A program made the translations under genes and the position numbers. This document shows positions 9,854-29,975 of a stretch of DNA of 32,000 nt, in pieces. How positions within the stretch are numbered: position 1 is the stretch's first letter; the number at the start of each line of letters is the position of its first letter. This DNA comes from Longimicrobiales bacterium (GTDB lineage Bacteria > Gemmatimonadota > Gemmatimonadetes > Longimicrobiales > Gaopeijiaceae): the NCBI GenBank assembly GCA_965226375.1, contig CBDDCX010000006.1, positions 110,393 through 142,392 on the forward strand. Direction: 5' to 3'. The notes beneath the pieces were generated by a model that saw only the letters and a list, made by a program, of their open reading frames with translations, made no database searches and had not been told where the DNA came from.

Positions 9854-9934
9854 CAGTTCAGCCAGCTCCTCCCGTGCCGGGTCGCCATGAGTGCCACCCA
9901 GCGCTCGAACGTCTCGATGGCTGACACCTCCTCA

Positions 9935-11266: not shown

Positions 11267-11386
11267 GAGCCGTTCTCCGTAATGTCGATGGTGAGATCCG
11301 CCGGACCTCGGTTCCCCGATTCGCACCCTCCTTTCCTAGTTCTCCGGAGGCCGGCCGGGGTTCCCGCCGAGAGGGTCAGTCTGGCT

Positions 11387-12031: not shown

Positions 12032-12511
12032 ATGGATCAACCGTTTCAGATGAAACTCAGCCAAATCCACAACCGCAGTTTGGCTATCCTCATCGCTCGA
12101 GTCATTCTCGGCCTGATTTTCTTCATGGCTGGGCAGTGGAAGTTGTTCTCGCTTGGCCCCCTAGGACATGCTCGCCGCTGGTTCGTCGGGCCCTACGCGG
12201 AGACGTTCTTGCCGATGTGGTCTCTGTGGGCGACGGGGACCGTTGTTCCCTTCGTGGAATTCGTGGCGGGTGCCTTGCTCTTGGTTGGACTATGGACGCG
12301 TCCAGCACTCGCCGCGCTCGGCGGTGTCTTGATTATCGTGACGTTCGGCCACCTGCTCGCCGACACGTTGTATGCGTTTCATACGCACGTGATTCCCCGG
12401 ACGGCGCTCCTACTCTTTGTGTTGGCCATGCCGGCCTCAGAGGACCGTTTGTCCATGGATTACTGGCTCGCTCGTCGAGCAGCGGACCGGTCAACCAGGG
12501 ATCCTCGCTAG
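12032..12511 (+). CDS. DoxX-like membrane protein (second paralog)
   Basis: Start at MDQPFQMKLSQ (alternative ATG at 12050). Four hydrophobic helices: LAILIARVILGLIFFMAGQWKLF..., VVPFVEFVAGALLLVGLWTR. Confidence 0.7.
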   Translation: MDQPFQMKLSQIHNRSLAILIARVILGLIFFMAGQWKLFSLGPLGHARRWFVGPYAETFLPMWSLWATGTVVPFVEFVAGALLLVGLWTRPALAALGGVLIIVTFGHLLADTLYAFHTHVIPRTALLLFVLAMPASEDRLSMDYWLARRAADRSTRDPR

Positions 12512-12540
12512 CGCGCGATGGGTGAGGGGCTTGCCCGATC

Positions 12541-12574
12541 TATAGGGAATCGCTATATAGGGTGACACCCTATA
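12541..12574 (+). promoter_or_regulatory. Candidate PadR operator: 19-bp perfect palindrome plus an extra upstream half-site
   Basis: TATAGGGTG-a-CACCCTATA (12556-12574, 9-bp arms) lies 20 nt upstream of the padR ATG. A third TATAGGG half-site sits at 12541-12547. TATAGT (12571-12576) is a possible -10. Confidence 0.5.
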
Positions 12575-12593
12575 GTGACTGGCCCCATAAAAT

Positions 12594-12938
12594 ATGGCAC
12601 AGAATCCAGAGCAGTTCATCCCGCTCACGCACGTGGCCTACCACGTGCTGCTCGCCCTCTCCGACCAGTCCAGGCACGGCTACGGCATCATCAAGCACGT
12701 GGAAGAGAGGACGAACGGTCGCTTGGAGTTGGAGGCAGGCACACTGTACGCCGCGATCAAGAGGCTGCGCGACGACGCGTTGATCTCCGACGCGAAGGCG
12801 CCTTCCGGAACCGACTCTCGGCGCCGCTACTACGGGCTGACTCCGTTCGGGCGGCGCGTCCTGGAGGCCGAGTCGCTCCGACTCGTCGAGCTCGTGGCGC
12901 TCGCACGCGATGCTCAGCTGATCCCCCCGGGCGTGTAG
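12594..12938 (+). CDS. PadR family transcriptional regulator (cassette 1, class A)
   Basis: 114 aa. HVLLALSDQSRHGYGIIKHVEERTNGRLELEAGTLYAAIKRLRDDALI...RRRYYGLTPFGRRVLEAE is a canonical PadR wHTH. Confidence 0.9.
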   Translation: MAQNPEQFIPLTHVAYHVLLALSDQSRHGYGIIKHVEERTNGRLELEAGTLYAAIKRLRDDALISDAKAPSGTDSRRRYYGLTPFGRRVLEAESLRLVELVALARDAQLIPPGV

Positions 12939-12945
12939 GCTACCG

Positions 12946-15639
12946 GTGTCACCGAAGAGCTACCGTCGACTGTTCTTTCTCCTGCCCTCGCGGTTCAGGG
13001 ACGAGTACGGTTCGGAGTTGGAGGAAGTGGTCGAGGATCGTTGGAACGTGGTCCGAGAGCGAGGCGGGGTCGCCGTGAGGATCCGATTCTGGGTAAGGGA
13101 AACTGTGGCGCTCACGCTGCTCGCGACCCGGTTGCGAGTGGGGCTGGAGCCGGCTTCGGCCGAGCGCACGACTACACGCATGAAGACGATGATGAGGAGG
13201 TGGGAGGTGAACGGTTTGGGACAGGACCTCGGACAAGCGGTCCGATCGCTACTCAAGGAACCGGGTTTCACTCTCGTGACGGTGCTTACACTCGGGCTCG
13301 GCGTCGGTGCCTCGACGGCGATCTTCAGCGCGGTCCACGCCGTGCTCTTCCGTGATCTGGCGTACGCCGACGCAGACCGGATCGTAGCCGTGTTTCATGC
13401 GGATACCGAAACGCGAGAGCTCTCAGTCGGCGCGTCGGCCACGAACATCAGGGACGTGGCCGAGTCGAGTAACCGACTCTCCGGGGCTGCCATAGCGGAG
13501 CCCTGGAGCCTCGACCTCTTCCTGGACGACCGCACCGAGTCGCTTCGCACATGGGCCGTGTCCACAGGGTTCTTCGAGATCCTCGGCGCGGCGCCCGCGC
13601 TCGGTCGCGCTTTCCGTCCCGACGAATACGTGGAAGGGAACGACAAGGTGGTCCTGCTGGGGCATCGCAGTTGGACGCAGCGCTTCGGCGCCGACCCTGC
13701 GATCGTGGGCCGGACCGTAACACTCGACAACGAGCCCTACACGGTCGTGGGTGTCCTTACCCGGGACTTCAAGTACCCCAACCAGGCAGCGGCATGGATT
13801 CCTCGGGCCCCTAATTCGCGGGACGACGGCTCCCGGGCCGCGGACTACATGTACGGTATCGGGCGACTCGCCGACGGAGCGACGATGTCGGACGCGCAGG
13901 CCGAAATGGATCGCCTGGCGCGCTCGCTCGAGGAAGCCTTTCCGGAGACGAACACCAACATCGGTATACAGTTGGTCCCGTTCCGGGAGCACCTCTTCGG
14001 AGACGTGCGTACACCGCTTTATGTGTTGTTGTCGGCGGTCGGGTTCGTGCTACTCATCGCATGCGCGAACGTTACGGGCCTGATGCTCGCTCGAGGAGCA
14101 AAGCGGGAGCGCGAGTACGCGCTCCGGAGCGCTCTTGGGGCCGGGCGAGCCCGCTTGGCCGGATATGTTGCGACCGAGAGCCTGCTCTTGGCAGCTGTCG
14201 GATGCGCGCTGGGCGTCGGGCTCACCTTCCTGGGGGTGCGTGTGATCCAGAGTCTCGGACCGGATCATCTGCCGCGCATCGACGAGCTTCGTGTCGATGG
14301 CACGGTCCTGACGTTCGCCCTGATCGTGGCGGGACTCAGCGCGTTTCTCTCCGGGTTGGCACCGGCCTTCAGACTCTCTCGCCCCGATTTGCGAGGTGCG
14401 CTGTCGGACGCCACTCGGGGCAGCACGGGCGGACGGAAGGCCAATCGACTGAGGAACCGGCTCGTCGTGGCCGAGGTTGCAGCCGCCCTGGTCCTGCTCA
14501 TCGGGGCCGGGCTCCTCACCAGGAGCTTCTCGATTCTGGTGAACGAGGAATTGGGCTTCGACCCGACGGACCGAGTCGCTATTCAGGTCTTCGCGTACGG
14601 GTATCCGGGTGAGGAGCTGATTCAGTTCGTGAACCAGACGATCGAGAACATGAACGCGATTCCCGGAGTGAGGGACGTGGCGATCACGTCGAACGTGCCC
14701 GGCGCGACGGACGGCGCGATCGCCTCGATCGACATCGACTTGCCTATGCGGATCGATGGGGTGGCTCCGCTGCCGACTGGTCAGGAGCCGGTCACCTGGA
14801 TTTCGCAGGTGTCGAAGAGCTATTTCAACGTGATGGGGATGCCGATGGTCGCGGGTCGCGGCTTCGATGACGGCGACCGTTCCGAGGCTCCGCCGGTCGT
14901 GATCGTCAATGAGGCCCTGGTCCGGCGCCATCTGGGCTATCGGGACGCGGTAGGACAGCGCATCGGCCTGCCTTGGGGCCCCGAGGCGGACCAGTGGAAG
15001 TGGCGTGAGATCGTGGGTGTCGTGAAGGACGTCCGTCCGCTGGGCTTCGAGTCGGAGCCGCGGCCCGAGGTCTTCTTCCCGATCACCCAGGCGGGCACAG
15101 GCAGCTTGACCTTCGTGCTCGCTTCCGATACGGACGCGGGCCCCATCGTGACCCAGGCGGCCGAGGCGGTCTGGCAGGCGAATCCGGCACAGGCCGTTTA
15201 TGGAGCTGCCACACTCGAGGCGCTACTGGCCGATTGGCTGCAGGAACGACAATTCAATGTGGTGCTCTTGTCGTCGTTCGCGCTGATCGCGCTGATGCTC
15301 TCGGCGGTGGGGATATACGGACTCGTCAGCTTTTCGATGGCACAGCGCGTCGGGGAGCTCGGAATCCGTAGGGCGCTCGGCGGCCAGACCCCCGACGTGC
15401 TCGGCATGGTGCTCCGGGAAGGAGCGAGGCTGGCCGGGGCAGGCGTGGTGCTGGGAGTCGTGGGCGCCTTGGTCCTCACCCGCTTCCTCGGCGGCATGCT
15501 TTGCGGCGTGGAGCCCACCGACTGGCCGACCTTCGGGCTGCTTGCTCTGGCGGTGCTCATGGTGTCGTCGTTGGCCACGCTCGTGCCGGCGATTCGCGCT
15601 ACGCGTGTGGATCCGATGGAGGCCCTCAGAGAGGGTTAG
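12946..15639 (+). CDS. Duplicated MacB/FtsX-type permease with N-terminal cytoplasmic prefix (ADOP-type orphan permease), cassette 1
   Basis: 897 aa, GTG start 7 nt after the padR stop. Prefix YRRLFFLLPSRFRDEYGSELEEVV. Then two units of TM + large periplasmic domain + 3 TM (IACANVTGLMLARGAKREREYALRSALGAGRARL; second unit MAQRVGELGIRRALGG), and the tail IRATRVDPMEALREG. Confidence 0.9.
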   Translation: MSPKSYRRLFFLLPSRFRDEYGSELEEVVEDRWNVVRERGGVAVRIRFWVRETVALTLLATRLRVGLEPASAERTTTRMKTMMRRWEVNGLGQDLGQAVRSLLKEPGFTLVTVLTLGLGVGASTAIFSAVHAVLFRDLAYADADRIVAVFHADTETRELSVGASATNIRDVAESSNRLSGAAIAEPWSLDLFLDDRTESLRTWAVSTGFFEILGAAPALGRAFRPDEYVEGNDKVVLLGHRSWTQRFGADPAIVGRTVTLDNEPYTVVGVLTRDFKYPNQAAAWIPRAPNSRDDGSRAADYMYGIGRLADGATMSDAQAEMDRLARSLEEAFPETNTNIGIQLVPFREHLFGDVRTPLYVLLSAVGFVLLIACANVTGLMLARGAKREREYALRSALGAGRARLAGYVATESLLLAAVGCALGVGLTFLGVRVIQSLGPDHLPRIDELRVDGTVLTFALIVAGLSAFLSGLAPAFRLSRPDLRGALSDATRGSTGGRKANRLRNRLVVAEVAAALVLLIGAGLLTRSFSILVNEELGFDPTDRVAIQVFAYGYPGEELIQFVNQTIENMNAIPGVRDVAITSNVPGATDGAIASIDIDLPMRIDGVAPLPTGQEPVTWISQVSKSYFNVMGMPMVAGRGFDDGDRSEAPPVVIVNEALVRRHLGYRDAVGQRIGLPWGPEADQWKWREIVGVVKDVRPLGFESEPRPEVFFPITQAGTGSLTFVLASDTDAGPIVTQAAEAVWQANPAQAVYGAATLEALLADWLQERQFNVVLLSSFALIALMLSAVGIYGLVSFSMAQRVGELGIRRALGGQTPDVLGMVLREGARLAGAGVVLGVVGALVLTRFLGGMLCGVEPTDWPTFGLLALAVLMVSSLATLVPAIRATRVDPMEALREG

Positions 15640-15670
15640 CGGTCCCGCGTCGGCTTTCGTGGCGGACGTC

Positions 15671-16066
15671 CTACCGTACCACGCAAACCTTCGCGCCGTG
15701 ACCGGGCGCGTCAGCGCTCCGACCATCACACGTGAGTAGCGGACAGTCGAGGGCCTCCGCGAGCGCAACGTAGGCGGCGTCGTACGCGCTCAAGTTGTCG
15801 CGCAGCATCCAGATGCGCGGGACGAGCATCCCAGCGGGGCGTCTTTCGACGGGTAGTGCCTGCAGTAGCTCCACAGCCCCGGTCGCCCTCGAATCCGAGA
15901 CGGCGCCCGACCGCGCCAAGCGTCGAAACGCCTGCACGACTTCGACGTCGAGTAGATCCGGGGCGAAGAATGCACCGTCCGGGTCGTCCAGCAACTGTGT
16001 TACCACGCCGTCACCACGCTCGCTTCCCAGTAGCCACTCCACCACGGCAGAGGCGTCCAAGACCAT
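15671..16066 (-). CDS. vapC: PIN-domain toxin VapC
   Basis: 131 aa from MVLDASAVVEWLLG. Acidic PIN residues are present (D4, E..., D..AYVALAEALDCPLLTCD). The start overlaps the vapB stop (TGATG, 1-nt overlap at 16066). The longer track ORF to 16324 is rejected. Confidence 0.85.
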   Translation of the reverse strand: MVLDASAVVEWLLGSERGDGVVTQLLDDPDGAFFAPDLLDVEVVQAFRRLARSGAVSDSRATGAVELLQALPVERRPAGMLVPRIWMLRDNLSAYDAAYVALAEALDCPLLTCDGRSADAPGHGAKVCVVR

Positions 16067-16296
16067 CACCGGGTGTCGCGATCCTCGCGGATGATTTCGG
16101 CGGCCGTTGGAGCACCGTACACCGGCCCCAATTCGTGAACACGTGCCACGACCTCGTCCACGCTCAGCCGTTGCAATTCCTTCTGCAGTGCTCGAAGTGC
16201 CAGATCGGACAGGGTCACCCCTTCCATGGCCGCCTTGGCCTTGGCTCGGCGGTGCAGGTCCTCCGGCACATTGCGGATTTGGATCATGATAGACAT
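16066..16296 (-). CDS. vapB: Ribbon-helix-helix antitoxin VapB (FitA/Arc-like)
   Basis: 76 aa. MSIMIQIRNVPEDLHRRAKAKAAMEGVTLSDLALRAL is a typical RHH antitoxin N-terminus. Translationally coupled to vapC. Confidence 0.8.
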   Translation of the reverse strand: MSIMIQIRNVPEDLHRRAKAKAAMEGVTLSDLALRALQKELQRLSVDEVVARVHELGPVYGAPTAAEIIREDRDTR

Positions 16297-16329
16297 GTGA
16301 AAAGCATGTTAGCATGTGTAGCACATGTC
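16292..16329 (-). promoter_or_regulatory. Candidate vapBC operator (CATGT-rich inverted repeats)
   Basis: GACATGTG (16292-16299) and CACATGTC (16322-16329) are inverted 8-mers, with two further CATGT copies between them. The region spans the vapB start codon and its immediate upstream sequence. Confidence 0.45.
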
Positions 16330-16463
16330 AACGGCTGAACGTCTTACGGCACCTGTCTCCGTGGATTCAGCCGACCCCTCGGGTCGGTCAGGGTCTAGTT
16401 GAGGGCCGGGGCTCCAGCGTAAACAGCCTGTCCAACATCCGGGGTTCAACCGGTATTCCAACC

Positions 16464-16511
16464 ATATCGCACTGCGAAGTGTCCAACCCCTCGATATCGC
16501 AATGCGAAGTG
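16464..16511 (+). promoter_or_regulatory. Two 18-bp direct repeats, each containing a TCGCA-n-TGCGA palindrome; candidate operator pair for cassette 2
   Basis: ATATCGCACTGCGAAGTG (16464-16481) and ATATCGCAATGCGAAGTG (16494-16511) are 17/18 identical, 30 bp centre to centre, and end 5 nt before the first possible permease start. Confidence 0.5.
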
Positions 16512-16515
16512 AGGA

Positions 16516-19131
16516 ATGGACCGATCGGGGAGACGAATGGATCGATCACCCAGGGGCATCTACAGGGCTCTACTCAGGGTCTATCCAGCCGCGTTCCGCC
16601 AACGCTTTGGCCAATCGATGGAGGTCGTCTTCGAGCGAGAGTGGAAGCGGGCTCGGATCGCGGGAACCCCGGCGGCGTTCGTGTTTTGGATCCGGCTCCT
16701 GGCGGATTCTTTCGTAAACGTTCCGCGCGAGTGGCTCGACGTCGCCGCGCACGAGGGGAAAGGGAGGGTGGGGATGATGCTCGAGAGTCTATGGCAGGAT
16801 CTTCGATACGGAATGCGGGGACTGGTGAGACGCCCTGCACTTACCTTGGTTTTGACCCTCACCCTGGGCCTCGGAATCGGGGGTGTGACGGCCATCCAAT
16901 CGGTGCTGCGTGGGACGCTGTTGCGGGAGCTTCCGTACGACGCGCCCGATCGAATCCACATGTTCTGGAATGCCGGTTCATGGGCTCCAAGTGATCTGGC
17001 GGTCCTCGAGGAAGGCAGCCCGACGCTCTCTCTGGTGGCCGCCTACACCGAGACCCAGGTCGTGGTACAGAACGAGTCCGGCCCCGCGTCGGCCGAGGAT
17101 GCCCTCCTTGTCTCCCACGACTTCTTCTCCGTGTTCGGTGTGGAGCTTCAAAGGGGACGCGACTTCGACGTATCGGACGAGGTCCGGGGAGCCCCGCCGG
17201 TCGCGGTGATCACCCATGGCCTGTGGGTCGAGCTGGGTCAGAGACCCGATATGGTCGGCTCGACGCTGCGGATAGACGGTCAGGGCGTCGAGATCGTCGG
17301 GATCACCGCACCGGAATTCTACTTCCCGGACGAAGCGACGAGGATGTTTCGGCCGATGCAGGTCGATCGCACGAGCCGTGATCGCTACCTCAGCCTGATC
17401 ACCCGAGTCTCGACAACGGCCACCCCCGAGACGCTCGCCGGCGAGGCGCAGCGCGTCGTGACGGTGCTCGGGCGGCAGATTGACAGTTTTTCCGATGCCG
17501 TTCGGCTGACACCGGTTCGGCGCGCCATCTTCGGCCGTAATCGCGAGCCGATGATCCTGGTCGGGGGAGCGCTGGCGCTCGTGCTGCTCATGGCCGTCAT
17601 CAACGTAGGGGGGTTGTTGCTCGGGCACACCGAGCGACGCAGGGGCGAGTTATCCCTTCGGGCGGCCATCGGCGCGAGTAGGAGTCGTCTCGCTCGCCAA
17701 CTCGTGACCGAGTCCACGATCATCGGCTTGTTGGGCGGTGGCGCCGCAGTGCTGTTCGGGCTGGTCGGCTTCAAGCTGCTGGTGGGCAGCCTGCCGATCT
17801 CACCGGGGGATGCCCAGGCACTCGAGATGGATCGGGTATTTCTGCTCTTCACGCTGCTCCTTGGTGTGGGGGTCGGGGCGGTTGTCGGTCTGATCGCAGC
17901 GCTCGGATCGTCCGCCAAGACACCGGGCGGGAGTCGCGGCACGACTACCGGCGCCTCCCGCTCAGCAGCGCTGACCCAGAACGCACTGGTCATAGCACAG
18001 GTCGCCCTTACCGTGCTGCTCGTCGGGGGAGCCGGCGTGATGGCGAGGAGCGTCGGCGAGCTCTCGATGATCGAGACCGGCCTCTCTCCCGGACAGGCCG
18101 TGGTCCTCGATGTCGTCGCCGGCGCCGGGGATTATCCTGCCTCCGAACGCGGAGAGCTGTACGCCAACCTTCGTGGATTGATCGGTGAGATGCCCCAAAC
18201 GGCCTCGGTCGGCTTGAGCCAGAAGCTCCCGCTGAGAGGGAGCGGGTGGACCACGTCGGTGGTGGCTCCGGGAGTGTTGGATGAGCCGATGTTCGTTCCG
18301 ATTCGGTTCGTCACGCCGGGATATTTCGAGGCATTGGGCGTGCCGCTCGCCTCCGGGCGCCTTCCCGACTCGTTCATCGACCGAGCCGATGGTGCTCCGG
18401 TGGCCTGGGTGAACCAAGCACTTGCCGAGAGGATTTGGCCCAGAGAGGATCCGGCCGGCCAGCGTTCGGTCACCGCTTGGGGAGCGAGCCGCCGCGTGGC
18501 GGGCGTAGTGGGTAACGTTTCGGAAGGGAATCTGACAGATGCGGTTCTCCCTGCGATCTACGTTCTGATCGAGCAACATCCGCGGTTTCTGAGTTTTGCG
18601 ATGGTCGCGCGACCCGTGCCCGGGGCGGGGCCGCAGTACCCGGCCCAGGTCGTGAACCTGTTGAGAGAGCGGGAGCCCCGCCTGGCCGTGAGGAGCGTCT
18701 CCACGTTTACCGAGGTCGAGCAGGCCGCTCAGGGGGACACGCTCATGATCATGCGACTGCTGATCCTGCTCGGTGTGTTGGCGCTCATCGTCGGCGCCGT
18801 CGGCGTGCACGGTGTCATCTCGCAGTGGGTCAGCGGGCGGATCCGAGGCTGGGCTGTAGCGCTCGCCCTGGGCGCCACCTCCGGGACTGTACTCCGGGAG
18901 GTGCTGATACGAAGCCTCTCGCTGACTGTGGCGGGCGTGGGTGCGGGGATCGTACTCTTCCTGATCGGCAGCTCTGCGCTCGAGTCCTTCCTGTTCGGCG
19001 TCGAGCGGACCGACCCGGTATCTCTCGGCGCCACAGCAGCCTTGATCGTCGCTACGGGAGTACTGGCGGCCGCAGCCCCCGCTCTCCGTGCCGTTCGCAC
19101 CGATCCCGTGACCCTGTTGAGGGGAGAATGA
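16516..19131 (+). CDS. Duplicated MacB/FtsX-type permease with N-terminal prefix (ADOP-type), cassette 2
   Basis: 871 aa. The alternative ATG at 16537 has a better-placed GGGGAG. Prefix YRALLRVYPAAFRQRFGQSMEVVF (class A). Two FtsX-like units and the tail LRAVRTDPVTLLRGE. Confidence 0.9.
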   Translation: MDRSGRRMDRSPRGIYRALLRVYPAAFRQRFGQSMEVVFEREWKRARIAGTPAAFVFWIRLLADSFVNVPREWLDVAAHEGKGRVGMMLESLWQDLRYGMRGLVRRPALTLVLTLTLGLGIGGVTAIQSVLRGTLLRELPYDAPDRIHMFWNAGSWAPSDLAVLEEGSPTLSLVAAYTETQVVVQNESGPASAEDALLVSHDFFSVFGVELQRGRDFDVSDEVRGAPPVAVITHGLWVELGQRPDMVGSTLRIDGQGVEIVGITAPEFYFPDEATRMFRPMQVDRTSRDRYLSLITRVSTTATPETLAGEAQRVVTVLGRQIDSFSDAVRLTPVRRAIFGRNREPMILVGGALALVLLMAVINVGGLLLGHTERRRGELSLRAAIGASRSRLARQLVTESTIIGLLGGGAAVLFGLVGFKLLVGSLPISPGDAQALEMDRVFLLFTLLLGVGVGAVVGLIAALGSSAKTPGGSRGTTTGASRSAALTQNALVIAQVALTVLLVGGAGVMARSVGELSMIETGLSPGQAVVLDVVAGAGDYPASERGELYANLRGLIGEMPQTASVGLSQKLPLRGSGWTTSVVAPGVLDEPMFVPIRFVTPGYFEALGVPLASGRLPDSFIDRADGAPVAWVNQALAERIWPREDPAGQRSVTAWGASRRVAGVVGNVSEGNLTDAVLPAIYVLIEQHPRFLSFAMVARPVPGAGPQYPAQVVNLLREREPRLAVRSVSTFTEVEQAAQGDTLMIMRLLILLGVLALIVGAVGVHGVISQWVSGRIRGWAVALALGATSGTVLREVLIRSLSLTVAGVGAGIVLFLIGSSALESFLFGVERTDPVSLGATAALIVATGVLAAAAPALRAVRTDPVTLLRGE

Positions 19132-19430
19132 CGCTCAATCGATCGTCCCTGCCATCCGCTCAGTTCCAGATCCTCCTGGCGCTAGCCGATGGCCCGAAGC
19201 CGGGCCATGTCATCAACGAAGACATGCGCGTGAGGAGTGACGGCCGGTTGGCGATGGGACCGGGTACGCTGTATGGCGGGCTCAAGCGCCTGCTTCGGCG
19301 GGGGTGGGTGACCGAGGCCGACGGCGTCTATCAGATCACCGCGGAGGGTGCTGCGGCCTGCGAGCGAGAGATCGCCCGCATGAGCGCGATCCTCGGGATC
19401 GCGGCGGCGAAGGGGCTGGCGGCGCGCTGA
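19128..19430 (+). CDS. PadR-like wHTH regulator located downstream of its permease (cassette 2, class A)
   Basis: 100 aa from MTLNRSSLPSAQFQILLALADGPKPGHVINEDMRVRSDGRLAMGPGTLYGGLKRLLRRGWV. The ATG overlaps the permease TGA (ATGA at 19128-19131). This is only the distal part of track ORF 18825-19430. Confidence 0.8.
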   Translation: MTLNRSSLPSAQFQILLALADGPKPGHVINEDMRVRSDGRLAMGPGTLYGGLKRLLRRGWVTEADGVYQITAEGAAACEREIARMSAILGIAAAKGLAAR

Positions 19431-19472
19431 GGGGGGAGCCGCTTGAGACGAGCCCCGCCGTCTCCGGGTGTG

Positions 19473-20459
19473 TTACCCGTCAATAACCCGTGTTTCCCGT
19501 TCGAGCTCGAGATCGTAAATGTAGAGACCGTACACACCGTCGACTGCCTTCGTGTAGGTCAGGAAACGCCCGTTTGGAGAAACACGCGCTCTGTTGACGA
19601 AGCCGCCGGTATTGGACACCGCGTTGCCGTCCTCGACCATGATGGTAGGGGCCGGTTGGCCGAGGCGCTGTCGCAACAGCGATCTTCCGTCTGAGTTGTC
19701 CCGGAAGAAGAACACCTCGCTGCCGTCCGAGCTCCAGCTTGCACCTTCGTCAGGAACCTCGTTCTGGGTGATGGGCGTAATGGTCCCGTCCGCGAGGTCC
19801 AAAACCATGATCTCCGTCGACACATTGACATCGTTTCGTTCCTCGTCGGTCTGATCACGCCTGAACTTGTAGAGGGCCGTTGTCCGGACGAACAGAATCC
19901 GATCACCATCGGGTGACCATTGGGGTGAGAAATCGTTGTACTGACCGTCCGTGACCCGCTCCCTCCCCAGTCCATCGGTGCCGACCACGTAGATACTGTG
20001 GACGAAAGGATTGATCTCGGGCCTCGACTGAAAGGCGATGCGGTCTCCATCCGGAGACCACGTGATGTCGTACTCCAGCGCGGCGCTCTCGTCGGTAACC
20101 CGTCTCTGGTCCGATCCGTCGGCGTTCATGATATGGATCTGAAGACTGATCGGTCGTTCGTCCCTTTGATCTCGTCGGTTCGAGAAGAAGGCGACTTTCC
20201 GGCCATCCGGAGACCAAACCGGACCCTCATCATTGTACTCGGCATCCGTAAGGCGGATGAGGTTGTGGCCGTCGACATCAACGGCGTAAATCGAGAACGC
20301 GCCATTACTGCCAGACGAGAAAACGATTCTCTCACCGTCCGGCGACCAGTCCGGACTGAAATACATGACAGGGCTGCTTTCTTGAGCCCGAAGACCGGTC
20401 GGTAGTAGACCAACAGAAAGAAGCAGTAGCTTCACGGATTTTAGTGACGACCCCTTCAT
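19473..20459 (-). CDS. Periplasmic TolB-like beta-propeller (PD40/WD40-like repeats)
   Basis: 328 aa. Signal peptide MKGSSLKSVKLLLLSVGLLPTGLRAQE. Six repeats carry the PD40 signature (WSPDGERIVF, WSPDGRKVAF, WSPDGDRIAF, WSPDGDRILF, WSSDGSEVFF, SPNGRFLTY). Confidence 0.85.
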   Translation of the reverse strand: MKGSSLKSVKLLLLSVGLLPTGLRAQESSPVMYFSPDWSPDGERIVFSSGSNGAFSIYAVDVDGHNLIRLTDAEYNDEGPVWSPDGRKVAFFSNRRDQRDERPISLQIHIMNADGSDQRRVTDESAALEYDITWSPDGDRIAFQSRPEINPFVHSIYVVGTDGLGRERVTDGQYNDFSPQWSPDGDRILFVRTTALYKFRRDQTDEERNDVNVSTEIMVLDLADGTITPITQNEVPDEGASWSSDGSEVFFFRDNSDGRSLLRQRLGQPAPTIMVEDGNAVSNTGGFVNRARVSPNGRFLTYTKAVDGVYGLYIYDLELERETRVIDG

Positions 20460-20538
20460 CCTCCCGTCCCTTTCCCGAGCATATAGCCGAATGACTTGTC
20501 ACAGTGCCTCGGAGCGGCTCTCAGCAGCCAGTCGCCCT

Positions 20539-23214: not shown

Positions 23215-23396
23215 CGCGTGGCTCCGTCCGCAGCAGAGGGCATGCCCTCCCACATGCGTTCCCACTGACGGCGCACCTCTTCCAGGGCCTCGTCACCCGC
23301 CTCGGTTATGCGGAAGTGACGTCTGGCTTTTCCGCCTCGGACCGGGGTCGGATCACCGAGCTGCGAGCTGAGGAATCCTTTTGTTTCCAGCCGCAT
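23211..23396 (-). pseudogene. PadR family regulator, C-terminal fragment only (5'-truncated), cassette 3
   Basis: RLETKGFLSSQLGDPTPVRGGKARRHFRITEAGDEALEEVRRQWERMWEG aligns with residues ~53-103 of the intact PadR at 29640-29975 (RMERKGLIRSDVGSPTPERGGRAKRFYELRPPGLEALVDARETLARFWEK). Residues upstream of 23396 in the track ORF are the antisense of the neighbouring permease remnant. The N-terminal helices of the wHTH are absent. Confidence 0.75.
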
Positions 23397-25045
23397 GGGA
23401 GTCCCTGGTAGGAAACGTCCGGCCGGCGCTGCTGATGTTGATGGGAGCGGTGGGCCTGGTCCTCCTGATAGTCTGCGCCAACGTGGCGAATCTCCTATTG
23501 GCGCGGACGGCGGCACGTGATCGTGAGGTAGCAGTTCGCATCGCTCTGGGAGCCGGGCGCTTACGACTCGTCCGGCAGCTTCTCACCGAGAGCGTGCTGC
23601 TGGCAGTGGTGGGCGGGTTGGCGGGAGTCGGGTTGGCGTATGGCGGTCTACGTGTCATCCTCGCCTTGGCGCCATCCCAAGCCGTCCCCCGGGTCACCGA
23701 GATCAGCATGGACGGCCGAATCCTTGCGGTCATGGCCGCCGTGACGTTGGCCACTGCCGTACTGTTCGGTCTGGTTCCCGCGCTCAAGAGATCACGCTCG
23801 CGTTTGGCCCACACCATGAAGGAGGGCACTCGGGGCATGCGGGCTATGCCGGGTGGACGCCGTCGGGGATCTCTCGTGGTGTTGGAGACGGCGGTGGCCA
23901 TGGTGCTCGTCGTCGCGTCGGGCCTGCTCATCCGGAGCTTCGCGGCCGTCCAGTCGGTCGATCCGGGGTTCGATCCGGACGGTCTTTGGGAGATCTCACT
24001 CTCGTTACCGTTTACCCAATATCCGAGCGAGCGCTGGCCCGAGGTGGAGACGTTCTTTGATCAGGTCACGCGCCGGACGCGTGAAATGCCGGGTGTCCGT
24101 GACGCCGCTATTGCGTACGCGGGTCCGACGAACCCGAGTTGGACGATTGGCTTTTGGGTCGACGGGCGCCCGGAACCCGCCGGAAACGTGCGGCCCGAGG
24201 CACAATACCGCCCGGTCTCTCCAGGCTACTTCCGGACCGCAGGCATCCCCCTCGTACGTGGTCGTGATTTCACCGACCTCGACGATTCGAAGTCCACGGG
24301 TGTGGTGATCGTGAATCAGGCGTTCGCCGACCAGCACTTTCCCGGCGAGGACCCCATCGGCCAGGTACTACTGATCGGCAGCTGGTGGGAGGATATCGCG
24401 ATCGCCCGCTGGGAGGTTGTCGGGCTGGCGCCGAACGTCCGCTATTTCGGTCGTGAGTCCGAGACGCTCCCGGGTTACTACTTTCCCCACGCTCAGCGCC
24501 CCATGACGGACATGGTGCTCCTGGTACGGGTCGACGGCGACATTGCCGATGTGTTGCCGTTGATTCGCCAGGAGGTCTGGAGTTTCGACGGGAGCGTGCC
24601 GGTGGAGAGAGTCTCGCCGAGCGAGCAGGCCCTGGTAACCTCGGTGGCCGGTCGGCGCTTCAACACGATCCTTCTGGGCGTCTTCGGCGGAGTGGCTCTG
24701 CTGCTGGCGGCCGTCGGTCTGTACGGCGTTCTGTCCTACACGGTGTCCCAGAGGACCCATGAGATGGGAGTGCGGGTGTCCTTGGGTGCTCAGCCCGCAG
24801 ATGTCCGACGACTGGTGGTCATGCAGGGGCTTAGACTCGCCCTCGGGGGCCTCGCGCTGGGCCTCGTTGCGGCCTTCGGATTCAGTCGCCTCGCGTCGTC
24901 CCTCCTGTTCGGGGTCACGGAGGGTGACCCGGTCACGTTGGCGACCGTCTCTGGTCTGCTGATCGGGGTCGCGGTTCTGGCCAGTTACCTCCCGGCGCGT
25001 CGGGCCACACGGATCGATCCCGTGACGGCATTGAGAGCGGACTAG
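23396..25045 (+). pseudogene. ADOP-type permease, 5'-truncated remnant (about 330 N-terminal codons missing), cassette 4
   Basis: Homology begins abruptly at (W)ESLVGNVRPALLMLMGAVGLVLLIVCANVANLLLARTAARDREVAVRIALGAGRLRL. In the intact paralogs this segment lies about 330-350 aa from the N-terminus. There is no prefix, TM1, first periplasmic domain, credible start or RBS. The 3' part is intact to the tail RRATRIDPVTALRAD. Confidence 0.8.
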
Positions 25046-25207
25046 TGTCCAGACCCGGGTAGGGATCCGGAGTGTGCAAGTCTTCACCCTTCGATCGTCA
25101 TCAGATACGTAGGGCGGCTCCAAGGGGTCGTCCGTGGGGTAACTGAGCCAAGCCTCGGAGCCCCAACGGGAGAGATTCGCTCTCCGATGTGATCGAATGA
25201 GGACGCC

Positions 25208-25714
25208 GTGGACGCTGACTGGGCAGAGCTCTACCGAACGACGCTGCCGGATCTGGTTCGCTTTCTGCACCGCAAGGTGTGGGATTTGGAGCGTGCCAAG
25301 GACCTGGCACAGGAGACGTTCGTCCGGGCGTTACGGGAGCAACCGGACAAGCCCCGCGCGTGGCTTTTTACGGTTGCGGCCAACCTGGCCCGTGACGAGG
25401 CGCGAACCGCCATACGGCGCAAGAAACACCTCACGCTACTCAAGTCCGAGGCGGAAGTGCGTGGGCCGGCCCCCGATCCGCAGGCGGAGCTCGAACGGGG
25501 GGAGCGCGAGGCGGAGGTGCGGAGGGCTCTGGAGTCCCTGGGGGAGAGAGACCGTGAGGCCCTTCTCCTGTGGGATGCGGGGCAGAACTACGAAGACATC
25601 GCAGAGGCGCTGGACCTGGCGGTGGGCGCGGTGGGAACCACGCTCGCCCGTGCCCGGCAGCGGCTCGTGAAGGCGCATGGAGACTTGGAGCAATCAGATG
25701 TCGCACGTCGGTAA
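25208..25714 (+). CDS. ECF-type RNA polymerase sigma factor (sigma-70 family)
   Basis: 168 aa, GTG start with GAGGA 4 nt upstream. Region 2: DLAQETFVRALREQPDKPRAWLFTVAANLARDE. Region 4: REALLLWDAGQNYEDIAEALDLAVGAVGTTLARARQRL. Confidence 0.9.
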   Translation: MDADWAELYRTTLPDLVRFLHRKVWDLERAKDLAQETFVRALREQPDKPRAWLFTVAANLARDEARTAIRRKKHLTLLKSEAEVRGPAPDPQAELERGEREAEVRRALESLGERDREALLLWDAGQNYEDIAEALDLAVGAVGTTLARARQRLVKAHGDLEQSDVARR

Positions 25715-26915
25715 GGGAGATATCCACGCCTACCTCGACGGCGCCCTGGGCGCCTATCCCGAGGGTGAGGCCAATCGCGTGGGACAGCACCTGGACGAGT
25801 GCGAGGCGTGCGCTCGATCCTTGGATGAAGAGCGAGAGCTCCGTATGGTCGCGTCGGAAATTCTGGCCGCTACGGCCGAGGCTCCCATGGACCTGGCACC
25901 GTTCGAAGAACTGGTGGCAGGGGCGGACGAGGCAGAGTCGACCCGCCCGTCCGGCGGGACGTCGAAGTTCAGGGTGCTCCGCATGGCCGCCACGGTGGTG
26001 ATTTCCCTCGGTGCCGGATGGATGGCCCATGATCTGACCGGACCCGGCAGCGAACTGGCAACCGCGCCTGCGCTCGACGCGGTGCGAACCCAGGAGGGCG
26101 TTCCGTCGCGAGCTGACGAGGCCCTGAATCCGTTCCAGGCCGAGCCCGAACTCAGGCAGGCCGATCAGGGCGACTTTACCGCCCAGGTTGCGTCACCCGT
26201 GCAGTCGCAGGACCTCGACGCCGAGGCGGTGCCACCCATTGCCTGTGCGGCACTCTCCGACGTGGTAATAGCGCCGACCGACGCGCCGGCCGCCGCGGTC
26301 CCCATGGAGTCCGCCGATGAGGTTGAGGCCGGACGGCGCGACGCGGTCGGCGGCGCTCTCCGGTTGGATCAGCAGCGAGCGTCCGAGGCAGCGCCCCAAG
26401 CGGCCGGACCAGCCGCTCCCCTGGAGCGGAGAAGGCGCGAGGCGGTCGACCCGACCAGCGTCATGGACAACCGAGCTGTCACGGGAGTGGCCAGAGGCGT
26501 GGCTGCCTCCGTCCTGGCGGAGGATGTCACGAAGTCCAATCAGGATGAGCTGTTCGCGGACAATGCCAACGCGATGAGTCTCAATGAAATGTCAGTCACC
26601 GGGCGCACGAGCTCCTTCGTCATCCCAGGCCTCTCGATCCGGGACGTCCGGTTCGGGGGAGGCGCCGAGGGTTTCGATTCTGCGGTGACGATCATTCAGG
26701 AGCTCCCGGACGGGCGCGTCGTGGAGTTGCGCTTCGTACCCACCCTGGCGGAGCGAGACACATCGAGGGACGCTGAGGGGATCCCCGTCGCACGCCTCCC
26801 GGACGGGTGGAACCAGGTCGTTCGAGAACTCCTGGATGGTCTGGCTATTCTCCGCGGCCCGCTCGGTGAAGCCGAGTTATCCGAACTACTCGACCAGGCG
26901 CTCGCCCGGCGCTGA
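25698..26915 (+). CDS. Anti-sigma factor (zf-HC2 type), single-pass membrane protein with Ala/Pro-rich linker and uncharacterised C-terminal domain
   Basis: Start at MSHVGKGDIHAYLDGAL (GGAG 7 nt upstream), overlapping the sigma gene by 17 nt. H-x3-C-x2-C motif HLDECEAC. TM segment MAATVVISLGAGWMA. Confidence 0.75.
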   Translation: MSHVGKGDIHAYLDGALGAYPEGEANRVGQHLDECEACARSLDEERELRMVASEILAATAEAPMDLAPFEELVAGADEAESTRPSGGTSKFRVLRMAATVVISLGAGWMAHDLTGPGSELATAPALDAVRTQEGVPSRADEALNPFQAEPELRQADQGDFTAQVASPVQSQDLDAEAVPPIACAALSDVVIAPTDAPAAAVPMESADEVEAGRRDAVGGALRLDQQRASEAAPQAAGPAAPLERRRREAVDPTSVMDNRAVTGVARGVAASVLAEDVTKSNQDELFADNANAMSLNEMSVTGRTSSFVIPGLSIRDVRFGGGAEGFDSAVTIIQELPDGRVVELRFVPTLAERDTSRDAEGIPVARLPDGWNQVVRELLDGLAILRGPLGEAELSELLDQALARR

Positions 26916-26961
26916 GCCCGCCGCTTTCCGATGCCTGCCGGTGGGTCGGTCCCCCGAGGCC

Positions 26962-29643
26962 TTACTTTTTCCGCATGGCTGACATGGGATCGACCCGAGT
27001 GGCGCGGAACGCCGGGATGTAGTTGGCCACCAGCGCCACCACCATCAGGGCCGCCGGCACACCGATGAACGTCACCGGATCTCGGGGGCTTATGCCGACC
27101 ACCATGCTCTCCAGGACGGGACTCAGCAGGAGCGCTCCGACGATTCCGACCGCGGCTCCGGCGGTCATCAGCGTCCCGCCCTTGTAAAGCACCATGCGCA
27201 GCACGTCCCCTCGCTGGGCACCGAGTGCCATCCGCAGGCTGATCTCGGCCTTTCTCTCCGAGACCATATACGACATCACTCCGTAGATCCCCAGGCCCGC
27301 CATGACCAGCGCGAACACAGCGAAGGTCATCGCCAAAGTCAGGAGGGCGAGGCTGAACGACGAGCTATCGTATTTGTATTGCTCCATGGTGCGGACGTCG
27401 TCGACCGGTTGTGCCGGATCCACGGACCGGACGGCGTTCTTGATGCCGGCCAGGGCCTCCGTGGGCTCGCCGCGGGTGCGCGCGAGTAGTACCATGCGCC
27501 TCCGTGGCGTCTGCGAGAGTGGCAGGTAGATCTGCGGCACGTGCTCGATCGACGGACCGGGTCCGTACTCGGTCCCGCCTGCGATGCCGACGATGGTCAA
27601 CCAGTCCTCCGACTCGGAGCTGGCGGGAAGGATCCGCTGCCCGATGGGGTTTTCACCGGGCCAGTACTTTTCCGCGGCGGCAAGGCTGACGATCACTACA
27701 GGCGGTGCCTCGCCATTGTCCTGGAGTTCGAGACTCCGTCCCCTGAGCAGCGGCACCCGCAGCACGTCGAGGTAGTCCCGGCTGATCACGGTCTCGACCG
27801 CCCGCGGCTGGTCCCGCTCGTCGACCACCGGCCTTCCCTCGATTTCGAACCGTGATCCTTGGGATGTGACGCCGGGCCGCGTGTTCACCAGAGCGATGCC
27901 TTCCACGTCGGGGAGGGCGACGGCTGTGGCCAGCAGTTCGTCGAAGAACTGTCGAGCCCGCTGGTCCTCGGCGTAACCGGACTCGGGCAAGTCCACGACC
28001 ATGGACAGCACACCCGTGCCCTCGTATCCACGGTCGATCGTCTGGATCAGCAGGTTGGTTCGTGTAGACACGCCGGCCACCACCATGAGAATGAGGGCCA
28101 GGGCCATCTGCGAGATCACGAGTGCCCCCCGGAGGCGACCCCCCTTGCGGCCGCTCGCTCCCAAGACCCCGCCATCCTTCAGCGTGGCGCTGACGTCGGT
28201 GCGACTGCCCCGCAAGGCCGGAATCAATCCGAAGATGACGGGTGCCGCCAAGGTTACGATCAGGGGGAACGTCAGTACGTGGCGGTCGATTATGGCCGTC
28301 GTGAACAGCGCCTCCCGCCCGCGGGTGATCGCCACCAGCAGGCGCATCAGGCCATGGGCCATGGCCAAGCCCATCACCCCCGCCGACGTGGCCACGAGTA
28401 CGCTCTCGGTCAGCAGTTGGCGGATGATACGGAGCCTGCTGGCACCAAGGGCCACGCGCACCGCCAACTCACGGCTACGGCCCGGGGACCGCGCGAGGAG
28501 CATGTTGGCCACGTTGGCGCAGGCGATCATGAGCACGAACCCGCCCGTCAGTCCCAACAGGAGCAGGATCGCGGGAAGCTCATCGCCCAGCAGCAGGGTC
28601 CGCGTGTCCACCACGTGCATATTCCAGTTGCCGTTGGTTTCCGGATAGAGCTCCGAGAGGTGCTCACCCAGGGCGGTTATGTCCTCGTCGGCTTGCTCGA
28701 CCGTGACGCCCGGCAGGAGCCGCCCCGACACCAGGAGGGTTCTTGCTTCCCGATCGCCACCTGTCTCCGGTTCGTCGAGGGGCAGCCAAAGCCTTGCGAG
28801 GCCGAGGCTCGCGAACTCCATGCGCGACGATACGACCCCAACGATCGTGTGTTGGCTTCCGTCTATGCGAAGCGTCTGACCGAGGACGTCGGGATCGCCT
28901 CCGAAGCGTTCCTCCCAGAACCCGTAGGAAAGCAGAACGACGGGTGCCGCTCCGGGCCGATCCTCCCCCGGCAGAAAGTCGCGACCCAACGCCATCGGGA
29001 CTCTCCAGTTGCCCAAGAAGTTGTCGGTGGCTTTGTGGATCGCCACTCGCTCGGGCTCGTCGCCACCCGTGAGAATGGCGTTCTCCATCATGAGCCCCGA
29101 GAGGCCTTCGAAGCTGCGTTGGTCCCGCCGAAGGTCCACCAGATCCTGGAAGCTTACTCCCTCTTGGAACTGGCCGGTGGCGGCATCGTTCATCGACAAG
29201 AACCCGAGCGTCTCGTCGTCCTGCATTGGCAGGTCCTGGAACGCCACGATGTTGACCAGGCTGAAAATCGCCGTGTTCACGCCGATGGCGAGAGCCAGGG
29301 CGAGTGCGGAGATGACCGCGTAGCCGGGGCTCTTCTTTAGGCTACGAAGGCCGTATCCGATATCCTGCCACAGGGTCTCCATCAGTAGACCGCCCTCCCT
29401 GGAGCGAGACGAGCGTTCGCGAAACCGGAGCGTGAGGTTGGACTTGAACGACGACAGGACCTGTCGGCGGTACCAGCGGCGAGCCGTAACAACACCCTCG
29501 GCGTCTGCCAGGGTCCGGAACTCCTCGGCCAGGTCGCCGACTTGGTTGTCGCGATACCGACCGGGCAGGATCAGCGAGAGGATAACGCGGGCGAGCCTGG
29601 GTGGACTCGCTGGCGGGGGTGACCGATGCTTCCGGGTGTTCAT
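26962..29643 (-). CDS. Duplicated MacB/FtsX-type permease with N-terminal prefix (ADOP-type), cassette 5
   Basis: 893 aa. Class B prefix PPRLARVILSLILPGRYRDNQVGDLAEEFRTL. IACANVANMLLARSPGRSRELAVRVALGASRLRI; second unit ERKAEISLRMALGAQRGD; tail FRATRVDPMSAMRKK. The ATG overlaps the padR stop (ATGA at 29640-29643). Confidence 0.9.
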   Translation of the reverse strand: MNTRKHRSPPPASPPRLARVILSLILPGRYRDNQVGDLAEEFRTLADAEGVVTARRWYRRQVLSSFKSNLTLRFRERSSRSREGGLLMETLWQDIGYGLRSLKKSPGYAVISALALALAIGVNTAIFSLVNIVAFQDLPMQDDETLGFLSMNDAATGQFQEGVSFQDLVDLRRDQRSFEGLSGLMMENAILTGGDEPERVAIHKATDNFLGNWRVPMALGRDFLPGEDRPGAAPVVLLSYGFWEERFGGDPDVLGQTLRIDGSQHTIVGVVSSRMEFASLGLARLWLPLDEPETGGDREARTLLVSGRLLPGVTVEQADEDITALGEHLSELYPETNGNWNMHVVDTRTLLLGDELPAILLLLGLTGGFVLMIACANVANMLLARSPGRSRELAVRVALGASRLRIIRQLLTESVLVATSAGVMGLAMAHGLMRLLVAITRGREALFTTAIIDRHVLTFPLIVTLAAPVIFGLIPALRGSRTDVSATLKDGGVLGASGRKGGRLRGALVISQMALALILMVVAGVSTRTNLLIQTIDRGYEGTGVLSMVVDLPESGYAEDQRARQFFDELLATAVALPDVEGIALVNTRPGVTSQGSRFEIEGRPVVDERDQPRAVETVISRDYLDVLRVPLLRGRSLELQDNGEAPPVVIVSLAAAEKYWPGENPIGQRILPASSESEDWLTIVGIAGGTEYGPGPSIEHVPQIYLPLSQTPRRRMVLLARTRGEPTEALAGIKNAVRSVDPAQPVDDVRTMEQYKYDSSSFSLALLTLAMTFAVFALVMAGLGIYGVMSYMVSERKAEISLRMALGAQRGDVLRMVLYKGGTLMTAGAAVGIVGALLLSPVLESMVVGISPRDPVTFIGVPAALMVVALVANYIPAFRATRVDPMSAMRKK

Positions 29644-29975
29644 AGCAGCCCCTCCGGATCCAGCTCCAGCTTCTCCCAGAAGCGGGCCAGGGTCTCACGG
29701 GCGTCAACCAGCGCCTCCAGCCCCGGGGGGCGGAGTTCGTAGAAGCGCTTTGCGCGGCCTCCGCGCTCTGGGGTCGGGCTGCCCACGTCCGATCGGATGA
29801 GCCCTTTGCGCTCCATGCGGTCGAGGGCGGCGTAGACTGATCCGATGGATACGGGTCGCTCGGATCGCTCCTCGATCTCGTTACGGATGGCCACCCCGTA
29901 GGCGCCCGCTTTCAAACGTGCCACGGCCAGGAGTGTGATCTGCTCGAACTCGCCGAGAAAGGCGCTGTGAGGCAT
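29640..29975 (-). CDS. PadR family transcriptional regulator (cassette 5, class B; Acidobacterial-type PadR)
   Basis: 111 aa. FEQITLLAVARLKAGAYGVAIRNEIEERSERPVSIGSVYAALDRMERKGLIRSDVGSPTPERGGRAKRFYELRPPG. Confidence 0.9.
   Translation of the reverse strand: MPHSAFLGEFEQITLLAVARLKAGAYGVAIRNEIEERSERPVSIGSVYAALDRMERKGLIRSDVGSPTPERGGRAKRFYELRPPGLEALVDARETLARFWEKLELDPEGLL

Follow-up and report, generated by a model that had tools for sequence, protein, structure and literature searches.

PadR regulators and N-terminal prefixes pair by class in an array of duplicated MacB/FtsX-type permeases from a Longimicrobiales bacterium

A stretch of 32,000 nucleotides from a Longimicrobiales bacterium (GenBank assembly GCA_965226375.1, contig CBDDCX010000006.1, positions 110,393 to 142,392; hereafter the window) carries an array of genes for permeases of the Acidobacterial duplicated orphan permease (ADOP) family, interleaved with small genes for PadR-type regulators. 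A six-frame map of open reading frames (ORFs) and scans with hidden Markov models (HMMs) place four intact ADOP-type duplicated MacB/FtsX permeases and one 5'-truncated copy in the window. The permeases begin with a short cytoplasmic prefix, and the class of this prefix goes with the class of the neighbouring PadR, both here and in other genomes. Each cassette of PadR and permease is probably a self-contained, self-regulated envelope module, in which the PadR and the prefix would form a dyad that acts as the switch.

Pairing of prefixes and PadR regulators

A preliminary description of the window, made from the sequence alone, recognised two motif classes of prefix and PadR, A and B. These classes are real, and their pairing extends well beyond the window. 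Together with the window, 80 loci from other genomes yielded 204 non-redundant full-length ADOPs. A prefix can be recognised at the N-terminus of 29 of them, and in 21 of these a PadR gene is directly adjacent. In 174 ADOPs neither element is present, and not one of these prefix-less permeases adjoins a PadR gene. Co-occurrence of prefix and adjacent PadR among the 204 ADOPs gives p = 4e-21 in Fisher's exact test. The single remaining ADOP has a PadR and a prefix of another type (L013, 4879-8039, PadR upstream, prefix LWLITLVSLLVPRRLRADWKREWRAELE), which is matched by none of the three prefix profiles. With regard to the eight prefixed ADOPs that have no adjacent PadR, five are tandem followers, that is, the second or third permease behind a PadR-led ADOP, two lie at or near a contig start and one is unexplained. 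This last permease, at 9730-12415 of L037, has a type 1 prefix and no PadR detectable upstream, and it is neither a tandem follower nor near a contig edge.

All PadR-prefix pairs that could be typed are concordant (14 of type 1, three of class A and two of class B). Over 22 pairs, the Mantel correlation of PadR with prefix (r = 0.83) exceeds that of PadR with permease body (r = 0.55). Pairing at the level of classes is strongly supported by these comparisons, and the co-variation of prefix and regulator that had been proposed is, on the sequences at hand, a discrete pairing of classes; it is seen between classes but not at fine scale within class B. Inside the window the pairing is 5/5 once cassette 4, which is truncated here, is restored from sister strains. 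This cassette had been placed in class B, but the intact allele of L087 and L084 encodes a PadR4 (GTGTLYSAIKRLRKDGLISEA...RRKYYELTPAG) and an ADOP4 prefix (LLPPDFRWEHGNEM) that are both class A. Cassette 4 is therefore class A, in agreement with the body of ADOP4 being nearest to that of ADOP1 (40% identity). The permease bodies themselves do not split into the two classes.

The class-A prefix is widespread. An exhaustive scan with its profile recovered at least 1,709 representative 50%-identity clusters at E <= 0.001, always with the match at the N-terminus and in proteins of 49-917 aa; word-indexed searches with the prefixes alone gave just one or two matches, so that an exhaustive profile search was needed. 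Among the best 150 class-A-prefix proteins there are 40 ADOPs, a few Wzz/EpsF-like proteins and many small proteins with several transmembrane (TM) helices. A class-A PadR gene lies immediately upstream in all eight class-A-prefix proteins that were looked up (five ADOPs and three small non-ADOP membrane proteins), and the relatives of PadR1 number at least 784 clusters at E <= 1e-8. The class-A consensus reads RxYRxLLxLYPxxFRxxYGxEMxxxFxDxxRxAxxxxGxxxxxRxWxRxxxDL, and no Pfam or NCBIfam model, including HAAS, perm_prefix_1 and perm_prefix_2, matched the class-A prefixes. AlphaFold2 predicts three helices for it (residues 3-12, 15-39 and 42-64), with a predicted local distance difference test score (pLDDT) that is 84-94 when the whole protein is modelled and 72 when the prefix is modelled by itself.

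Class B, judged by profile matches, is the perm_prefix_2 of NCBIfam (NF038404, cut-off 35 bits): the prefix of ADOP5 scores 35.4 bits, just at the cut-off, and that of ADOP3 28.9 bits (E = 1e-6), under it. No window prefix matched perm_prefix_1 (NF038403) at E <= 10; the type 1 prefixes from other loci do so with 37-60 bits, and the PadRs paired with them look like the canonical padR_acidobact type. Among 80 metagenomic relatives of the class-B PadR5, the next gene starts with the class-B motif (LL..DEREAVLGDLxE) in 73 of the 74 evaluable cases. This motif is found mostly on multi-TM proteins that are some 250-300 aa long (three that were scanned measure 259-304 aa) and belong to no Pfam family, and occasionally on an ADOP. 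Such small class-B-prefix proteins (e.g. L119 672-1593 and L104 205-1237, within L094-L173) have a W(K/R)xWRPW motif after the prefix. Since the same pairs occur on ADOPs and on small membrane proteins, the conserved unit is PadR plus prefix, with the membrane module interchangeable.

This arrangement resembles a dyad of HAAS and a PadR-like winged helix-turn-helix (wHTH) protein, a computational proposal by Ravi et al. 2024 in which fusions to FtsX/MacB_PCD permeases are listed (PMC11237479). HAAS (Pfam PF22564) comprises three consecutive N-terminal helices, the third kinked and with a GxP motif, and a gene for a PadR-like wHTH protein lies adjacent (PMC11237479). The likeness consists in a standalone PadR beside a membrane protein with a short three-helix cytoplasmic N-terminus, and in modularity across membrane domains. 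Class A may therefore work like a HAAS-type partner, as its sequence context and predicted helices suggest, and membership of HAAS is not claimed for it.

Operator-like repeats accompany the class-A cassettes. A perfect 19-bp palindrome, TATAGGGTGACACCCTATA, stands at 12556-12574 upstream of PadR1, flanked at 15-bp spacing by two copies with two mismatches each; the resulting array (12541-12589) ends 5 bp before the PadR1 ATG, and its three matches compare with none in 100 shuffles. Among 173 fetched loci the exact form TATAGGG-N5-CCCTATA was found only 5' of class-A PadR genes, namely in the window and in L089 and L090, where it lies 40-70 bp upstream of the PadR start. It is a candidate for the class-A PadR operator. 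In the sister strains, the control region before PadR4 contains TATATCATA-C-TATGATATA, which keeps the geometry but has other inner bases, and the candidate PadR4 operator reads TATATCATACTATGATATA. Just 5' of ADOP2 there are two exact 18-bp direct repeats, ATATCGCAnTGCGAAGTG (16464-16481 and 16494-16511), each with the palindrome TCGCAnTGCGA (two matches, none expected in shuffles), which may be the operator of PadR2. Additionally, a perfect 24-bp palindrome, CCAATATGGATATATCCATATTGG, lies within positions 1-46 of L177, upstream of a class-A-type PadR that is paired with a small non-ADOP class-A-prefix protein, and is probably a different operator variant.

Permease family, fold and the question of an ATPase

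That the window permeases belong to the ADOP family and share its fold is held with very high confidence. Against the TIGR03434 (ADOP) cut-off of 622.3 bits, ADOP1, ADOP3, ADOP5 and the ADOP4 fragment all score above it (Table 1), and ADOP2, the most divergent copy, stays below at 554 bits and counts as a divergent relative only. MacB_PCD and FtsX stretches number two each in every full-length copy, and one and two, respectively, in the ADOP4 fragment, which matches the family architecture of two repeats of TM helix, MacB_PCD domain and three FtsX TM helices with a PadR gene adjacent (TIGR03434 with TIGR03433). PadR1, PadR2 and PadR5 attain the Pfam PadR gathering score (PF03551, 27 bits), and the PadR3 fragment, at 20.3 bits, does not. 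The ADOP assignment of the preliminary description thus holds, with the reservation for ADOP2, but the assignment of the companion PadRs to padR_acidobact (TIGR03433, cut-off 101.8 bits) fails, as all of them score below it (PadR1 66.3, PadR2 33.9, PadR5 39.4 and the PadR3 fragment 20.1 bits). A full-text literature search on the family name returned just two passing mentions, with no member characterised.

The permease bodies are 27-41% identical to one another, with FtsX cores at 30-50% and periplasmic domains at 24-34%. ADOP1-5 are therefore ancient paralogues, and a recent tandem duplication is ruled out by this level of identity and by the mixed orientations of the genes. The source is an uncultured bacterium of soil type, and the best relatives are metagenome-assembled genomes of Acidobacteriota and Gemmatimonadota. 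Most ADOPs of related genomes stand in tandem arrays behind an ATPase gene, without prefix and without PadR, and the window cassettes represent a minority form that is PadR-led and prefix-bearing.

The AlphaFold2 model of ADOP1 (pLDDT 86.8, predicted template modelling score 0.77) has eight TM helices and two periplasmic domains. A soluble helical prefix before TM1 had been described, and the model bears this out with the three helices in residues 3-64, adding an amphipathic helix (77-104) between them and TM1. Further cytoplasmic helices lie between TM2 and TM3 (388-396), between TM6 and TM7 (802-810) and at the C-terminus (890-896), and TM4 (452-477) is joined to TM5 (497-533) by a short cytoplasmic helix. 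The best match in the PDB is the YbbP chain 9ge6_A (E = 7e-19), followed by MacB, LolCDE and BceAB. The model shows the features of a type VII (MacB-type) protein: a four-TM FtsX module, a periplasmic domain between TM1 and TM2, and major and minor coupling helices.

Across the 204 ADOPs, conservation is highest at the cytoplasmic end of TM2 and the first coupling helix (R387, E390, R394 and G398 at 100%), at the second coupling helix (R808 and G812 at 100%) and in the tail P-A-x-R-A-x-R-x-D-P-x-x-A-L-R, and it is lowest in the periplasmic domains (1.9 vs 3.2-3.5 bits). All five window copies retain R387, E390, R394 and G398. The R-x-x-R-x-D-P tail ascribed to every window copy is present overall, except that ADOP3 has D-L for D-P. 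In MacB, the equivalents of these coupling helices contact the ATPase (PMC5985334), and the ADOP tail, which aligns to the MacB C-terminus, would for that reason be the minor coupling helix.

The closest solved system, E. coli YbbAP(-TesA) (PDB 9ge6), likewise pairs a single-chain two-unit MacB-type permease with two periplasmic domains and a separately encoded ATPase, and YbbAP works by ATPase-driven mechanotransmission (PMC12646458). It differs in that YbbP has 10 TM helices, including two extra ones that link the permease units (PMC5985334), compared with eight in ADOP1, in that the ATPase is encoded in the same operon, and in having no PadR and no N-terminal prefix; identity is about 14%.

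No ATPase gene adjoins any cassette of the window. The only candidate, a truncated MacB/LolD-type ATP-binding cassette (ABC) ATPase 3 kb upstream, is a remnant whose homology, seen in a three-frame translation, begins inside Walker A at 'GCGKTT', with about 47 N-terminal residues missing and a stop codon directly upstream. It is abutted in another frame by an unrelated ORF fragment (MSAGYSGTPLAKRLGIK..., from 8938), which may resemble DUF3052; 8938-9806 looks like another deletion scar. A search for an intact allele of the remnant through its TerC neighbour brought back only the same contig. In at least 11 of the fetched genomes, tandem arrays with as many as eight ADOPs are headed by ATPases to which the remnant is 68-76% identical; about a dozen more genomes have an ATPase of a second type beside their ADOPs, and L053 has ATPase-PadR-ADOP operons. 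Given the conserved coupling elements and the array-head ATPases, ADOPs are probably ATP-driven by a shared, separately encoded ATPase, and since the local copy is dead, the partner, if any, would be encoded elsewhere in the genome. The description of these permeases as orphans of uncharacterised energy source thus needs qualification, in view of the conserved elements for coupling to a nucleotide-binding domain and the MacB-type ATPase at the head of ADOP arrays elsewhere: they are probably not true orphans.

Gene map and strain variation

The features of the array are listed in Table 1. The map confirms the coordinates of all five permease ORFs, but not the five cassettes of PadR plus permease that had been counted, because only four PadR ORFs are present, three intact and one a fragment. 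PadR2 lies downstream of ADOP2, not upstream. It overlaps ADOP2 by 4 nt, as PadR5 does ADOP5, and these overlaps can be read as translational coupling.

Table 1. Features of the ADOP array and its surroundings, in window coordinates
Feature	Position	Strand	Description
MacB/LolD-type ABC ATPase remnant	9123-9806	+	5'-truncated; Pfam ABC_tran profile positions 35-136
PadR1	12594-12938	+	class-A PadR, 114 aa; Pfam PadR 70.6 bits; TIGR03433 66.3 bits
ADOP1	12946-15639	+	897 aa; class-A prefix (residues 1-64), amphipathic helix, 8-TM duplicated permease; TIGR03434 824 bits
VapC (PIN) toxin	15671-16066	-	Pfam PIN
FitA-like ribbon-helix-helix (RHH) antitoxin	16066-16296	-	FitA-like_RHH match
ADOP2	16516-19131 (gene caller start 16537)	+	class-A-like prefix; TIGR03434 553.7 bits
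PadR2	19128-19430	+	divergent class-A PadR, 100 aa; Pfam PadR 30.5 bits; 3' of ADOP2
PD40/TolB-like beta-propeller protein, secreted	19473-20459	-	Pfam PD40 repeats, 116 bits
ADOP3	20539-23214	-	891 aa; class-B, perm_prefix_2-like prefix; TIGR03434 761 bits
PadR3 fragment	23211-23396	-	C-terminal 61 residues only; weak PadR matches to C-terminal half
Deletion junction	23397/23398	.	1,783 bp strain-specific loss; blastn against L087, L084 and L086
ADOP4 fragment	23398-25045	+	C-terminal part, ADOP HMM positions 261-803; TIGR03434 653 bits
Extracytoplasmic function (ECF) sigma factor	25208-25714	+	Pfam Sigma70_r2, r4_2
Putative zf-HC2 anti-sigma factor	25698-26915	+	405 aa; weak zf-HC2 match, E = 0.03
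ADOP5	26962-29643	-	893 aa; class-B prefix (perm_prefix_2); TIGR03434 813 bits
PadR5	29640-29975	-	class-B PadR, 111 aa; Pfam PadR 42.7 bits

The same locus was recovered in five assemblies by exact-protein look-up. L086 is 99.85% identical to the window over 16.8 kb and has the identical deletion junction, and L087 and L084 carry 1,783 and 1,781 extra bases, respectively, at the point where window positions 23397 and 23398 meet. The sample (ERZ28763718) from which the window's own contig comes also yielded L084, a contig of 3.7 Mb. The deleted piece comprises residues 1-51 of PadR3, a divergent control region of 234 bp, all of PadR4 (122 aa) and about 341 N-terminal residues of ADOP4. The PadR3 fragment has lost its promoter and the N-terminal wHTH half of a protein that is 112 aa long in L087 and L084. 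Comparison of the breakpoint sequences with L087 and L084 revealed no microhomology at the deletion breakpoints. A mis-assembly at 23397 was rejected, since the independent assembly L086 shares the deletion, two others are intact and a Logan contig stops exactly at 23397, as expected for a branch of the assembly graph.

Other lesions are spread over the related loci. In L084, ADOP2 has a 1-bp deletion that shifts the frame, ADOP4 is disrupted and ADOP5 is cut by an island with a phage-type integrase (11755-15197); in L087, ADOP4 has a frameshift and an IS21-type element (rve and IstB) lies downstream (17376-19240), the single-base indels of these sister assemblies being possibly sequencing or assembly errors. 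In L085 an IS3-type transposase (7585-8747) takes the place of window positions 8982-24034, and cassettes 1-3 are gone. The nearest metagenomic relative of cassette 5, at 1608-3282 of L094 with a PadR 90% identical, encodes an ADOP whose class-B prefix runs directly into TM2 (…PPRLARWVLSLVLLIACANV…), most of the first half of the permease having been deleted internally. The larger of these events mark the array as an accessory region of fast turnover, and the accessory instead of housekeeping role that had been proposed fits the deletions, frameshifts and replacements by insertion sequences (IS) or islands from strain to strain.

The toxin-antitoxin and the sigma/anti-sigma pairs are interspersed and lie outside the cassettes. 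Six loci with a class-A ADOP were inspected, and in three of them (15671-16296 of the window, L089 5878-6548 and L092 5682-6379) a PIN toxin with an RHH/MazE/VapB antitoxin adjoins the ADOP, an adjacency that could be a coincidence or a stabilising association. The sigma/anti-sigma pair is located between cassettes 4 and 5, and the class-A ADOP of L092 is also near an ECF sigma factor. On the same strand as ADOP3 and 79 bp 3' of it, the PD40 beta-propeller gene might, speculatively, provide a periplasmic partner for this permease, by analogy with TesA for YbbAP; a WD40-type propeller is likewise found 3' of a class-A-prefix protein in L175 and L176. Near the left end of the window there is an IS1595-family transposase gene (DDE_Tnp_IS1595 and zinc ribbon, 1109-2095, minus strand).

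Working model, alternative readings and significance

In the proposed model, the permease would be a single-chain pseudo-dimer of a type VII (MacB/YbbP-like) membrane domain that keeps both its major and its C-terminal minor coupling helices, most likely served by two copies of a separately encoded MacB-type ATPase common to the paralogues. Before TM1, where MacB carries its fused ATPase, would stand the cytoplasmic three-helix prefix, acting as the cognate partner of the adjacent PadR repressor in a dyad of the HAAS-PadR type. The PadR, bound to a palindromic operator over its own promoter, would repress the padR-adop operon. Engagement of a periplasmic or membrane substrate or signal would change the conformation of the permease, TM1 and the amphipathic helix would pass this change on to the prefix, and the prefix would then capture or release its PadR, with induction of the cassette as the outcome. 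Distinct prefix/PadR classes and operators would insulate parallel cassettes within one cell, and the divergent periplasmic domains would give signal or substrate specificity. That the signals are toxins or antimicrobial peptides, as the preliminary description suggested, is speculative.

In the BceAB-BceRS systems of Firmicutes, a fused MacB-type permease doubles as the sensor of its own expression, with many mutually insulated paralogues per genome; BceB, with a single extracellular domain and 10 TM helices, passes its signal to a histidine kinase. BceAB, which is also among the structural relatives of ADOP1, offers by its flux sensing the closest functional analogy, in which PadR and prefix would here replace the two-component system. 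The only experimental precedent comes from PadR repressors that control their own operons for DUF1700 membrane proteins, as the Listeria PadR LltR does with the operon encoding lmo0600 (PMC6624303). In LmrR-LmrCD and LltR-lmo0600, as proposed for the window, a short PadR repressor acts on its own expression and on that of the transporter or membrane protein encoded beside it, but LmrR senses drugs directly, lmo0600 has a DUF1700/HAAS domain and not a class-A or class-B prefix, and a fusion to a MacB-type permease is seen in neither.

Several results weigh against the dyad model. Within class B, the correlation of PadR with the prefix (r = 0.29) does not exceed that with the membrane body (r = 0.36); fine-scale co-evolution is for this reason not established, and the class pairing could reflect inheritance as a unit. 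No palindrome with arms of at least six bases was found in the upstream regions of the class-B PadR5 and PadR3, and scans for sigma-70 promoters and terminators stayed at chance level and were uninformative. The one ATPase gene of the window is a pseudogene, and at other loci an ATPase is missing beside most PadR-led ADOPs. With regard to the prefixes, a Pfam scan of the four in the window gave no HAAS match at E <= 10, and the HAAS match of a related class-B ADOP prefix reaches only E = 0.33 and that of a type 1b prefix E = 0.0075. The class-A consensus has no GxP in helix 3, and neither Foldseek on the prefix model nor a PDB profile search found a PDB fold for it (2O3L was not recovered). 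Membership of class A in HAAS was rejected, Pfam, the PDB profile search and Foldseek all being without a match. Homology among class A, class B and type 1 prefixes is marginal (hhalign E = 0.025-0.28) and is not claimed.

Some of these points would suit a rival scheme, in which PadR is an ordinary ligand-sensing repressor of the LmrR/PadR kind that binds small toxic molecules, the prefix has another role, such as docking of the ATPase or oligomerisation, and the co-variation stems from joint inheritance. The closest solved structures to PadR1 are indeed LmrR-type drug-binding PadRs, and the correlations within class B are as such a scheme would have them. It seems unlikely nonetheless, as the prefix follows the class of the PadR and not the membrane domain, with the same pairs on ADOPs and on unrelated small multi-TM proteins, and as none of the 174 prefix-less ADOPs has a PadR beside it; a docking role in particular is hard to reconcile with prefix-less ADOPs directly behind ATPase genes. 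Rather less probable is that ADOPs have lost transport and serve as ATP-independent receptors or anti-repressors that sense periplasmic signals for PadR. The truncated ATPase and the lack of an adjacent one in most PadR-led loci would fit such a role, and FtsX and BceB are type VII permeases that act in signalling (PMC5985334). It is harder to square with the coupling-helix residues R387, E390, R394 and G398, present in all five copies and, with the C-terminal tail, the most conserved of the family, or with the ATPase-PadR-ADOP operons of L053. Moreover, signalling by FtsX and BceB is itself dependent on their ATPases.

Least probable of all, and very unlikely, is that the array is in decay, a graveyard of accessory paralogues that do little in the strain today. 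The 1,783-bp deletion in the window and L086, the truncated ATPase copy and the lesions in L084 (ADOP2, ADOP4 and ADOP5), L087 (ADOP4), L085 (cassettes 1-3) and L094 (the ADOP5 orthologue) would be in line with decay. Set against them, the ORFs of four permeases and three PadRs are unbroken and lack none of the family-invariant residues, cassettes 1, 2 and 5 still have their PadR together with the control region upstream, and some of the lesions are the single-base indels that may be sequencing errors. The dyad model stays the preferred, probable reading.

The ADOP and PadR families, perm_prefix_1, perm_prefix_2 and the dyad concept are already catalogued. Added here are a corrected class map, a quantified pairing and modularity at class level, a widespread class-A prefix without a model, accompanied by a PadR subclass and a candidate operator, evidence that an ATPase is shared, and natural deletion alleles. 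A wider proposition is put forward only tentatively, as possible but less than probable: that class-A prefix and PadR are a one-step transmembrane signalling pair, widespread but uncatalogued, which differs from HAAS, perm_prefix_1 and perm_prefix_2, has its own operator and is found on ADOPs and on several other membrane modules, and that one MacB-type ATPase powers many interchangeable permeases, which the PadR-prefix classes keep insulated from one another.

ADOPs are among the most expanded gene families of soil Acidobacteriota, Gemmatimonadota and Verrucomicrobiota, and up to eight stand in a row in the fetched loci. The present analysis turns the label "orphan permease" into testable predictions, with named repressor-prefix pairs, a candidate operator and a candidate shared ATPase, and natural alleles in which a repressor has been deleted together with its promoter are available for comparison. 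If the model is true, the PadR-prefix switch would offer a minimal substitute for two-component signalling, and orthogonal sensors could be made from its specificity classes.

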